Below are positions 48,001 to 54,000 of a stretch of DNA of 64,000 bases, piece after piece. This DNA comes from Escherichia coli (GTDB lineage: Bacteria; Pseudomonadota; Gammaproteobacteria; Enterobacterales; Enterobacteriaceae). The stretch lies in assembly GCF_003334785.1 (NCBI RefSeq), contig NZ_QOWV01000019.1; one strand, given 5' to 3'. The stretch's first letter is position 1. Every line of letters begins with the position of its first letter. The position numbers are program-made.

Positions 48001-51000
48001 ACAATCAGTATAAAGGTCCTGTTCGGTATTTATCTTCTATTAATGGCAGGCAAAGTTTTTGCCTTCAGTTGTAATGTCGATGGCGGGTCAAGTATTGGAG
48101 CAGGTACAACCTCTGTTTATGTTAATCTCGACCCTGTAATACAGCCGGGCCAGAATCTGGTTGTAGACTTGTCTCAGCATATAAGTTGCTGGAATGATTA
48201 CGGCGGCTGGTACGACACTGATCATATAAACCTGGTACAAGGCTCAGCTTTCGCAGGCTCCCTACAGTCATATAAAGGATCGCTGTACTGGAATAATGTG
48301 ACCTACCCCTTCCCGTTGACGACAAATACCAACGTATTGGATATTGGTGATAAGACACCGATGCCATTACCGTTAAAACTCTATATTACCCCAGTTGGGG
48401 CGGCCGGTGGAGTTGTCATAAAAGCGGGGGAAGTCATTGCCCGTATTCATATGTATAAAATTGCAACATTAGGAAGCGGAAATCCGCGTAATTTTACGTG
48501 GAATATTATTTCAAATAACAATGTTGTTATGCCAACAGGCGGCTGCACCGTTGATAGTCGTAATGTCACCGTGGATCTCCCGGACTTTCCTGGAAGCGCA
48601 GAAATACCCCTTGGCGTATATTGCTCAAGCGAACAAAAGCTCTCATTTTATCTTTCGGGTGCCACCACTGACAGTAGCCGACAAGTGTTTGCTAACACAG
48701 CACCTGATGCAACAAAAGCATCGGGAGTGGGTGTCACTCTAATGCGTAATGGAAAAATACTGGCTACGGGAGAAAATGTCTCCCTGGGGACAGTAAATAA
48801 AAGCAAAGTACCTCTGGGTTTAAGCGCAACCTATGGACAAACAGGAAACAAGGTTTCAGCCGGAACCGTCCAGTCAGTCATTGGTGTCACTTTTATCTAT
48901 GAATAATTGTGATTTTGACCTTAGTCTATGCGCTCCATTCACGAAAATTGCGCGGATAATTATTTTGTGAAGGCTATTAGCCTACACCTGTAAGAAAATC
49001 CGCGCACAATTGAAGCCAGAGTCTTATTTTTTATATTGAAAAATATGTTAATTTAAACACTATGAGAGATGATGCTTAACTTATCGTATTTAATCTATTG
49101 TTTAACGATAATAGATTAAAAATAGAAAGAGAGTAGTCCCCTACTCTTATATATCCATGTTGGCGATAATCCCTTTGTATGTACTGTGCATCATCGCTAT
49201 TACAAATCCTAATAATTCATTTCCACACAGGATAAGTAGATGAAGAAAAAAATTGAATCCTACCAGGGTGCTGCAGGTGGTTGGGGTGCTGTTAAATCCG
49301 TAGCGAATGCAGTACGTAAGCAGATGGATATACGCCAGGATGTTATTGCCATGTTTGACATGAATAAGCCAGATGGCTTTGACTGTCCGGGTTGTGCATG
49401 GCCAGATCCTAAGCACAGTGCGTCATTCGACATTTGTGAAAACGGCGCAAAAGCAATCGCCTGGGAAGTCACGGATAAGCAGGTAAACGCCTCTTTCTTT
49501 GCTGAGAATACGGTTCAATCATTACTTACCTGGGGAGACCACGAGCTTGAGGCTGCGGGGCGACTCACTCAGCCTTTGAAATATGATGCCGTCAGCGACT
49601 GTTACAAGCCATTAAGCTGGCAACAAGCTTTCGACGAAATTGGCGCACGCCTTCAAAGCTATAGTGATCCCAATCAGGTTGAATTCTATACTTCGGGCCG
49701 CACTTCCAATGAAGCTGCCTTTCTTTATCAGCTTTTTGCCCGTGAATACGGGAGCAATAACTTTCCCGACTGCTCCAACATGTGCCATGAACCGACAAGC
49801 GTGGGTTTGGCAGCGAGTATCGGTGTAGGTAAAGGGACCGTGTTGCTGGAAGACTTTGAGAAGTGCGATTTAGTCATTTGCATTGGGCATAACCCTGGTA
49901 CAAACCACCCTCGCATGCTGACTTCGTTGCGCGCTTTAGTGAAACGGGGAGCGAAAATGATCGCCATCAATCCTCTACAGGAACGTGGCCTGGAGCGATT
50001 TACCGCACCGCAAAACCCGTTTGAAATGCTGACGAACTCTGAGACTCAGTTGGCCAGTGCCTACTATAACGTGCGCATTGGTGGCGATATGGCGTTGCTC
50101 AAGGGGATGATGCGCCTGTTAATTGAGCGCGATGATGCTGCAAGCGCCGCAGGTCGGCCTTCATTGCTTGATGACGAGTTTATTCAAACGCATACCGTCG
50201 GCTTTGACGAGCTACGCCGTGACGTTCTCAATTCCGAGTGGAAAGATATCGAACGTATTTCTGGACTAAGTCAGACACAAATCGCCGAACTGGCTGACGC
50301 ATATGCCGCTGCCGAACGCACCATTATCTGTTACGGAATGGGGATCACTCAGCACGAACATGGTACCCAGAACGTACAGCAACTGGTCAATCTGCTGTTG
50401 ATGAAAGGTAACATTGGCAAGCCTGGTGCGGGTATCTGCCCACTACGTGGACACTCTAATGTACAGGGCGACCGAACCGTCGGTATCACCGAGAAACCGT
50501 CTGCAGAGTTTCTGGCTCGTCTGGGTGAGCGCTATGGCTTCACCCCACCTCATGCACCTGGACATGCTGCAATTGCCAGCATGCAAGCAATATGTACGGG
50601 GCAGGCTCGAGCATTGATCTGCATGGGGGGCAATTTTGCGCTGGCAATGCCAGATCGGGAAGCGAGCGCTGTACCGTTAACGCAATTAGATTTGGCGGTA
50701 CACGTAGCCACTAAGCTTAACCGCTCTCATCTGTTGACCGCACGGCATAGCTATATTCTGCCGGTCCTGGGACGTAGCGAGATTGACATGCAAAAAAACG
50801 GTGCGCAGGCGGTAACCGTTGAGGATTCAATGTCGATGATTCATGCCTCGCGTGGCGTGTTAAAACCCGCCGGTGTAATGCTGAAATCAGAGTGTGCAGT
50901 GGTCGCGGGAATCGCGCAGGCAGCACTACCCCAGAGCGTGGTAGCCTGGGAGTATCTGGTGGAAGATTATGATCGCATTCGCAATGACATTGAAGCTGTG

Positions 51001-54000
51001 CTGCCAGAGTTCGCCGACTATAACCAGCGCATCCGTCATCCCGGTGGTTTTCACCTGATAAATGCAGCTGCTGAAAGGCGCTGGATGACGCCGTCAGGTA
51101 AGGCTAATTTCATTACCAGCAAAGGGCTGTTAGAAGATCCCTCTTCAGCGTTTAACAGTAAGCTGGTCATGGCGACAGTACGCAGCCACGATCAGTACAA
51201 CACGACGATTTATGGTATGGATGATCGCTATCGAGGGGTATTCGGTCAACGAGATGTGGTCTTTATGAGTGCTAAACAAGCTAAAATTTGCCGTGTAAAA
51301 AACGGCGAAAGAGTTAATCTTATTGCGCTTACGCCAGACGGTAAGCGCAGCTCACGCCGCATGGATAGATTAAAAGTGGTCATTTACCCTATGGCTGACC
51401 GCTCACTGGTGACCTATTTTCCAGAATCGAATCACATGCTAACACTTGATAACCACGATCCATTAAGTGGCATTCCTGGCTATAAAAGTATTCCGGTTGA
51501 ATTAGAACCATCAAATTAATGCCTCTTCTCATTTCTTCTGCTGTCATCCGCACAGCAGAAGAATTCCTCATTGACTATTATTTCGCAATTTGCTCACATG
51601 GATTAAATTAAACTACATACTATAAGATATAAACTTCTGCCTACAGCTGTAAGAAACTCCGCTCAGTACTGAAGCACCAGTCCTATTTCCTCTTTTCTCC
51701 AGCCTGTTATATTAAGCATACTGATTAACGATTTTTAACGTTATCCGCTAAATAAACATATTTGAAATGCATGCGACCACAGTGAAAAACAAAATCACGC
51801 AAAGAGACAACTATAAAGAAATCATGTCTGCAATTGTGGTTGTCTTATTACTGACACTTACGTTGATAGCCATTTTTTCGGCAATTGATCAGCTGAGTAT
51901 TTCAGAAATGGGTCGCATTGCAAGAGATCTTACACATTTCATTATCAATAGTTTGCAAGGCTGAAAACAAACAGCAAATTATAAATATGAAATGTTAAAA
52001 AAGTATCGATAAAAACTTTATTGTTTTAAGGAGATAAAATGTCGCTCGTTTGTTCTGTTATATTTATTCATCATGCCTTCAACGCTAACATTTTAGATAA
52101 AGATTACGCCTTCTCTGACGGCGAGATCCTGATGGTAGATAACGCTGTTCGTACGCATTTTGAACCTTATGAGCGGCATTTTAAAGAGATCGGATTTACT
52201 GAAAATACCATTAAAAAATATCTACAATGCACTAACATCCAGACAGTGACGGTGCCTGTTCCTGCGAAGTTTTTACGTGCTTCAAATGTACCGACTGGAT
52301 TGCTTAATGAAATGATTGCTTATCTCAACTCGGAAGAACGCAATCATCATAATTTTTCAGAACTTTTGCTTTTTTCTTGCCTGTCTATTTTTGCCGCATG
52401 CAAAGGTTTCATTACACTATTAACTAACGGTGTGCTATCCGTTTCTGGGAAAGTGAGAAATATTGTCAACATGAAGCTGGCGCACCCATGGAAGCTGAAA
52501 GATATTTGTGACTGCCTGTACATCAGTGAAAGCCTGTTGAAGAAAAAACTTAAGCAAGAGCAAACGACATTCTCACAGATTCTTTTAGATGCAAGAATGC
52601 AGCACGCAAAAAATTTGATACGCGTAGAAGGTTCAGTCAATAAAATTGCCGAACAATGTGGTTATGCCAGTACATCTTATTTTATTTATGCGTTCCGCAA
52701 ACATTTCGGCAACAGTCCGAAGAGAGTTTCTAAGGAGTACCGTTGTCAAAGTCACACGGGTATGAATACGGGCAACACGATGAATGCTTTAGCTATTTGA
52801 TTATTTGCTAACGAGTAGTCAACCACACACGCTGCGTAAGAATTAAATGGGGCAGCCATTCCCTGCCCCGCGTTGTTTTTAGGCGATATATTTATTGAAA
52901 TAAATAAGTGACATCCATCACATATTTATGCACTTGCATAACCTGTTGCATGATTATTTATGATCTCAATTCTGCATTTTGTCAGTAAAATGCAATAATT
53001 TATTAAATATCAATAAATTAGTTGTTTATCGGCGAGAAATTACTTAATAGAACAGAAAGTAATGTCAACGCTTTATGGACTGTTTTTTCCCTTTTTTTAG
53101 CTAAATCTGCTATCTCTTTATGTGACTAACTTCACTTACATCCACTTATTTCTCTTCGTAAAATTACTTTGGAATTAAGTACAATAAGAAGAGGAACATT
53201 TATGAAGTCTGCATTAAAGAAAAGTGTCGTAAGTACCTCGATATCTTTGATACTGGCATCTGGTATGGCTGCATTTGCTGCTCATGCGGCAGATGATGTA
53301 AAGCTGAAAGCAACCAAAACAAACGTTGCTTTCTCAGACTTTACGCCGACAGAATACAGTACCAAAGGAAAGCCAAATATTATCGTACTGACCATGGATG
53401 ATCTTGGTTATGGACAACTTCCTTTTGATAAGGGATCTTTTGACCCAAAAACAATGGAAAATCGTGAAGTTGTCGATACCTACAAAATAGGGATAGATAA
53501 AGCCATTGAAGCTGCACAAAAATCAACGCCGACGCTCCTTTCATTAATGGATGAAGGCGTACGTTTTACTAACGGCTATGTGGCACACGGTGTTTCCGGC
53601 CCCTCCCGCGCCGCAATAATGACCGGTCGAGCTCCCGCCCGCTTTGGTGTCTATTCCAATACCGATGCTCAGGATGGTATTCCGCTAACAGAAACTTTCT
53701 TGCCTGAATTATTCCAGAATCATGGTTATTACACTGCAGCAGTAGGTAAATGGCACTTGTCAAAAATCAGTAATGTGCCGGTACCGGAAGATAAACAAAC
53801 GCGTGACTATCATGACAACTTCACCACATTTTCTGCGGAAGAATGGCAACCTCAAAACCGTGGCTTTGATTACTTTATGGGATTCCACGCTGCAGGAACG
53901 GCATATTACAACTCCCCTTCACTGTTCAAAAATCGTGAACGTGTCCCCGCAAAAGGTTATATCAGCGATCAGTTAACCGATGAGGCAATTGGCGTTGTTG

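Follow-up and report, generated by a model that had tools for sequence, protein, structure and literature searches.

Two inverted repeats flanking ydeP as probable EvgA operator sites in separate, paralogous promoters of ydeP and safA-ydeO in Escherichia coli

Are the two near-identical inverted repeats that flank ydeP in Escherichia coli the sites through which EvgA acts on ydeP and on safA-ydeO, and how much of the surrounding promoter belongs with them? The repeats lie in a stretch of 64,000 nucleotides from contig NZ_QOWV01000019.1 (assembly GCF_003334785.1), here called the window, one upstream of ydeP and the other upstream of safA-ydeO. That EvgA directly controls ydeP and safA-ydeO, at the head of the EvgA-YdeO-GadE acid-resistance cascade, is accepted and already known biology, not a discovery; mutations of the box at ydeP reportedly abolish EvgA-dependent induction. 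The EvgA-binding repeat was reportedly described by Masuda and Church (2003, Mol Microbiol 48:699) and by Itou, Eguchi and Utsumi (2009, Biosci Biotechnol Biochem 73:870), and we take both boxes of the window to be, as far as can be told, the sites described in the 2003 and 2009 reports. We conclude with high confidence that the two repeats are EvgA operator sites in two separate, paralogous promoters. We rely on the literature for EvgA binding and dependence; our own analysis concerns the sequence, non-randomness, position, orientation and conservation pattern of the sites and the in-register architecture that they share with other EvgA promoters.

Both sites are 18-bp dyads that match the EvgA consensus TTCYTACA-N2-TGTARGAA, and a preliminary description of this DNA, made before the present analysis, had their coordinates and sequences exactly right:

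48979..48996, + strand: EvgA box of the ydeP promoter, AGCCTACA-CC-TGTAAGAA, its centre at about -74.5 from the probable start site.
51638..51655, + strand: EvgA box of the safA-ydeO promoter, TGCCTACA-GC-TGTAAGAA.

The ydeP box (AGCCTACACCTGTAAGAA) departs from the consensus at two positions and the safA box (TGCCTACAGCTGTAAGAA) at one, and the near-identity and consensus match claimed for them hold up, above chance. A search of the window with TTCYTACANNTGTARGAA, allowing up to 3 mismatches, returned 3 matches against 0.55 expected, a count that none of 100 dinucleotide-preserving shuffles reached, and the shared 18-mer GCCTACANCTGTAAGAAA occurs exactly twice in the window against 0.01 expected. 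The mismatches of both boxes are confined to the two outermost bases of the gene-distal half-site and the gene-proximal half, TGTAAGAA, is perfect in both; the two boxes have the same orientation, each turning its perfect half toward the gene. Scored with a half-site weight matrix built from the 14 half-sites of seven boxes, four of these half-sites being those of ydeP and safA themselves, the distal halves reach 9.8 bits (ydeP) and 11.4 bits (safA), the range of true half-sites being 5.7-12.9 bits. Each box lies upstream of, and is oriented toward, a gene induced by EvgS/EvgA according to the literature, at 261 bp from the ATG of ydeP and 129 bp from that of safA. The third consensus match, TTCTTTTAGATGCAAGAA at 52580-52597 inside ydeO, has 3 mismatches, is at chance level and is not conserved in design.

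The same consensus recovers genes already associated with EvgA elsewhere. In an 18-kb K-12 segment around evgAS, where 0.23 sites are expected, there are four: two upstream of yfdX, one in the emrK-evgA interval and one, a perfect match, upstream of frc. A further K-12 site lies upstream of yegR; emrK/evgA, frc, yfdX and yegR are listed as EvgA-bound together with ydeP and safA (PMC8147483). The safA-ydeO promoter is bound directly by EvgA (PMC9496106), the ydeP promoter is under direct EvgA regulation (PMC7174508) and serves, in the form of ydeP-lacZ, as the standard EvgS/EvgA reporter (PMC7174508; PMC5573083), and an EvgA binding site is present in all genes known as directly EvgA-regulated (PMC4283999). 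The repeat studied here has the consensus, the genes and the orientation to the promoter of the 18-bp inverted repeat of the EvgA regulon (emrK/evgA, yfdX, frc, yegR, ydeP and b1500/safA), and differs from it in nothing essential, the ydeP box of the window having G instead of T at position 2. The direct EvgS/EvgA control that the preliminary description proposed for ydeP and safA-ydeO is supported by this literature on EvgA binding and regulation, by the recovery of the consensus at EvgA-bound genes and by conservation.

For conservation, both promoters were aligned from six other Escherichia lineages, namely UM146 (phylogroup B2), 13P477T, UID2309220003, 06-00048, A1_136 and L008, the last being the most divergent, with a YdeP only 95% identical. 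With the window included, seven lineages and two promoters make 14 sequences. CCTAC and TGTAAGAAA are invariant in all 14, the 2-bp spacer varies among lineages (CC, CT or TC at ydeP; GC, GA or GT at safA), and so do the outermost box bases, position 1 of the safA box being T or C. Such a distribution indicates purifying selection on the half-site cores but not on the spacer, and, judged from the alignment, both boxes are conserved with the pattern expected of a protein-binding dyad. In L008 the alignment decays 5' of the ydeP box and the stretch from the box to the leader stays conserved.

Two sequence variants were seen in these alignments. Position 48980 (position 2 of the ydeP box) is G in the window and T, closer to the consensus, in 6/6 other lineages; on this comparison, the G is a derived change away from the consensus. 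UM146 has a one-base deletion in the T-run equivalent to 49027-49032, and its spacing from the ydeP box to the -10, elsewhere constant, is 1 bp shorter; B2 strains have been reported with an acid-unresponsive EvgS (PMC5706723).

The likeness of the two promoters is one-sided. Conservation beyond the core on both sides, as first described, was not borne out, since the 60 bp 5' of the boxes, compared in register, match at chance level (about 4-5/20 matches per sliding window). The likeness begins with box position 2 and runs gene-ward, ungapped, for about 87-105 bp, its best block pairing 48980-49029 with 51639-51688 at 40/50. Over the 87 bp after the box, 53/87 positions match, and the next best segment in the window reaches 43/87 (127,828 windows, both strands; mean 22.3, standard deviation 4.2). 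Because other pairs of EvgA promoters, in register after the box, share only 16-36/87, the extra similarity of ydeP and safA is best read as common ancestry of both promoters. The safA member of the pair is as follows:

51656..51742, + strand: promoter stretch, ungapped paralogue of 48997-49083, with CA at 51664-51665, GTCCTATT at 51680-51687, an extended -10 at 51705-51713 and a predicted start at about 51721.

The similar stretch probably spans the promoter itself, that is, the extended -10, the start site and the first ~20 nt of the leader. Both promoters, and all orthologues, retain an early-leader segment (TGA...GAT..TTAAC, about +5 to +28; 49066-49090 and 51725-51749). Repression of safA by PhoP and YdeO has been reported, and no site for them was identified in this early-leader segment.

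Common ancestry brings with it the possibility that the repeat is chiefly what remains of a promoter segment that was duplicated, its copies alike by common descent or gene conversion and its boxes not individually maintained as binding sites. Such an origin would suit a similarity that is ungapped over ~105 bp and unique to the ydeP/safA pair, as well as the G that the window's ydeP box shares with safA at position 2, where other lineages have T. However, orthologous promoters are ~91% identical (mean column identity) as opposed to 53/87 after the box for the paralogues, and therefore the two promoters evolve independently under constraint, without recent conversion. In addition, the half-site cores are invariant within each lineage series while neighbouring bases change, and the dyad recurs, equally far from the -10, in the unrelated promoters of emrK, frc, yfdX and yegR. 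We thus regard a mere remnant as very unlikely. Descent and function are not exclusive, and duplication probably explains the flanks while selection explains the cores.

The position of the boxes relative to the core promoter depends on start sites that we infer. A ydeP leader transcript from -178 to +10, as numbered from the start codon, was used in a 2024 study (PMC11210196), and a 178-nt leader places the 5' end at 49062, which gives the following features:

49046..49054, + strand: putative extended -10 of ydeP, TGtTAATTT, in register with safA and conserved in orthologues.
49062..49239, + strand: 5' leader of ydeP, 178 nt, with a probable start derived from the leader transcript of PMC11210196.

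TAATTT (49049-49054), preceded by TG (49046-49047), lies 7-8 nt upstream of 49062, and safA has TGtTATATT at 51705-51713, in exactly the same register as the extended -10 of ydeP. With these starts, the box centres would stand at -74.5 in both promoters. Neither promoter has a credible -35 (TTTTTT at ydeP, TTTCCT at safA). A small conserved hairpin, AGAGTAGTCCCCTACTCT (dG -9.4 kcal/mol, z -2.2), occupies 49129-49148 within the putative ydeP leader, ~70 nt from its 5' end, and was also flagged as terminator-like on the minus strand. Near the -10/+1 region, yegR and ydeP have a common 12-mer, ATTTAAACACTA (4351-4362 of the yegR locus L057, 49051-49062 in the window), which is displaced by 5 bp relative to the EvgA boxes.

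To compare architectures, six promoters were aligned on the box in gene orientation: ydeP, safA, emrK, frc, yfdX (proximal box) and yegR. Columns invariant in 6/6 are CA at 8-9 nt, TC at 25-26 nt and T at 30 nt after the box, and A at 11 nt is found in 5/6, safA having T. When only one of the two paralogues ydeP and safA is counted, the alignment has 5-7 invariant columns, where random circular shifts give 0.3-0.8 (p ~1e-4 or less). A -10-like TAnnnT lies 53-58 nt after the box in four promoters and 52-57 nt after it in ydeP and safA; with start sites placed as above, the distance from box to core promoter is that of other EvgA-activated promoters. At ydeP, the conserved columns fall in two elements:

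48997..49007, + strand: conserved block adjoining the ydeP box, AATCCGCGCAC, with CA at 49005-49006 invariant in the six promoters and a weak half-site-like TCCGCGCA at 48999-49006.
49021..49028, + strand: half-site-like GTCTTATT, at about -41 to -34; it lies downstream of the distal half-site by 42 bp, or four helical turns, and its TC at 49022-49023 is invariant in the six promoters.

The second element, GTCTTATT, is invariant in all ydeP orthologues. When the weight matrix was slid downstream, the two best summed scores among 176 offset/orientation combinations came from the distal-half orientation, at offsets of 2 and 24, which lie 20 and 42 bp from where the box starts; the invariant columns having been noticed before, the slide is supportive, not decisive. 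Both half-site-like elements are weak, at no more than 1.8 bits versus 5.7-12.9 for true half-sites. A second full dyad downstream of the box was considered and rejected, the right-half positions not matching TGTARGAA, and the elements are single half-site-like sequences only. The alignment suggests that the six EvgA-box promoters have a fixed architecture, possibly with weak, phased extra half-sites.

Several points weigh against the assignment of both boxes as EvgA operators at a common promoter position. A comparison with the boxes at emrK, yfdX and gadE, which the preliminary description had proposed, recovered the emrK/evgA site and the two at yfdX and failed at gadE: in K-12, no EvgA box with 3 mismatches or fewer was found at gadE, where matches to the relaxed core pattern are no more frequent than by chance. 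A gene said to be EvgA-bound that has no recognisable box means that the consensus is not the whole story. The distal half-sites of both boxes, for their part, depart from the consensus in outer bases. The ydeP start at 49062 is taken from the design of a probe instead of a stated mapping, and the safA start near 51721, with its 46-nt leader, is predicted by register only. Furthermore, a simple sigma-70 consensus scan prefers TTGAAG-16-TATATT at 49010-49037, which would put the box near -57; this promoter was not adopted, its -10 not being conserved in safA (TCTTTT) and its position disagreeing with the 178-nt leader, and it is kept as an alternative. Finally, RcsB is required for ydeP induction (PMC7174508), and no site for it was found in the literature consulted.

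The last of these points is the basis for a second alternative, in which the dyads or the adjacent TCYTA elements would be bound mainly by another FixJ/NarL-type regulator, for instance RcsB, with EvgA acting jointly or indirectly. The RcsB half-site, TCCTA, is similar to the elements GTCCTATT/ATCCTATT found at -41 to -34. Without RcsB, neither ydeP nor gadE is acid-induced, even when EvgS is constitutively active (PMC7174508). Direct EvgA binding at these promoters is nevertheless stated in the literature (PMC8147483; PMC9496106), and the extra elements, at +1.8 bits or less, fall well below true EvgA half-sites. The half-sites of the RcsB/RcsAB box, TaAGaatatTCctA, are related (TCCTA / TAAGAA), and ydeP induction requires RcsB; an RcsAB box overlapping the proximal half-site was rejected, however, since TAAGAAAATCCGCG of ydeP, read by eye, matches the 14-bp RcsAB box at 9/14 only, with the spacing between its halves short by one base. 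Beside neither EvgA box was there a 14-bp RcsAB-type box with the correct 4-bp central spacing. We rate the primacy of such a regulator as a little less probable even than the remnant origin. The weakest explanation, chance similarity or a dispersed repeat family (a REP or insertion sequence (IS) remnant) unrelated to regulation, has nothing in its favour beyond the AT-rich context and a probability that we consider negligible, being refuted by the shuffles (0/100 reach the observed match count), by the 53/87 matches against 43/87 for the next best and by the single place per genome returned for a 116-bp query (blastn, E<=10; median E. coli genome); an Rfam scan of 48500-52900 at E<=1 also matched no RNA family.

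With EvgA as the regulator bound at both dyads, a mechanism can be proposed. Mild acid activates EvgS/EvgA (literature including PMC11210196 and PMC7174508), and at mildly acidic pH EvgS would phosphorylate EvgA, a response regulator of the NarL/FixJ family. An EvgA dimer would then occupy each dyad ~74.5 bp upstream of the start, with a monomer on either TTCYTACA-type half-site, and activate a sigma-70 promoter with an extended -10 and essentially no -35. Activation would probably proceed via upstream contacts with RNA polymerase, an activation class that we infer from the anatomy of the promoters. The ~87 bp from box to early leader would be alike in both promoters because of shared ancestry and the same fixed spacing requirements, and the weak phased elements at about -59 and about -37 may take further EvgA protomers, RNA polymerase contacts or RcsB. 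UhpA at uhpT and NarL at its 7-2-7 sites are same-family regulators acting on an inverted repeat well upstream of the -35. The model for the phased weak elements is borrowed from uhpT, where a strong upstream site for UhpA is followed by weaker sites reaching the -35. UhpA and NarL differ from EvgA in half-site sequence and length, the EvgA site being 8-2-8, and EvgA on the weak downstream sites is putative.

In a more speculative version, which we think unlikely though worth stating, EvgA promoters would be rigid composites, in which the dyad at -74.5 is joined by two weak half-site-like elements of the same orientation, one 20 bp (~2 helical turns) and one 42 bp (~4 turns) downstream, the latter next to the -35. 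Further EvgA protomers, or RcsB, would fill the weak elements cooperatively, and the whole module would be present in duplicate at ydeP and safA. Such a composite, if true, would account both for an induction that is steep and switch-like and for its dependence on RcsB. Two points may be new: the promoter paralogy, ungapped and strictly on one side, and the extra elements at fixed in-register positions. Unless they are already covered in the primary papers, 49005-49006, 49021-49028, 51664-51665 and 51680-51687 are the bases to mutate in order to study contacts of EvgA or RcsB with RNA polymerase.

The gene identities assumed in the preliminary description proved right by annotation and open reading frames (ORFs), with ydeP, safA and ydeO all on the + strand:

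Ending at 48906, + strand: ydeQ, by annotation and ORF.
49240-51519, + strand: ydeP coding sequence, 759 aa, by annotation and ORF.
51533..51563, + strand: strong hairpin TTCTTCTGCTGT..ACAGCAGAAGAA, dG -17.5 kcal/mol, z -5.2, 14 nt after the ydeP stop codon.
51767-51964, + strand: safA coding sequence, by annotation and ORF.
52039-52800, + strand: ydeO coding sequence, by annotation and ORF.

The hairpin at 51533-51563 is without a clean U-tract, and its stem is kept and its loop altered in the divergent L008. A role as terminator, attenuator or stabiliser between ydeP and the safA promoter is possible. It fits two transcription units with possible read-through and bears on the question of a single ydeP-safA-ydeO operon. 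Around the sites, 4.1 kb are 100% identical to many E. coli chromosomes and present in 5395/5426 complete genomes, and the 341 bp 5' of ydeP are identical to a K-12 strain, the window being K-12-like E. coli.

Outside Escherichia, the ydeP loci of Edwardsiella (L009-L011; anguillarum, piscicida and hoshinae) gave no EvgA-box match in L009 and nothing with the core pattern in L010-L011, and because they have no box they are of no use for footprinting. Their YdeP homologues share 85% identity with that of E. coli, a value that appears high for these genera and may reflect horizontal transfer. Plasmid places in the collection number six in all. On one plasmid (pKFu015_2, NZ_CP147132.1, 92 kb), ydeP is flanked by two IS3000-family transposase genes, the safA-side EvgA box is kept (3079-3096 of this locus, L060) and the ydeP-side box was not found. 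A contig (JARKOR010000108.1) of a metagenome-assembled genome labelled 'Candidatus Nanosynbacter' carries a 100% identical E. coli ydeP with both boxes and is almost certainly E. coli contamination of the bin.

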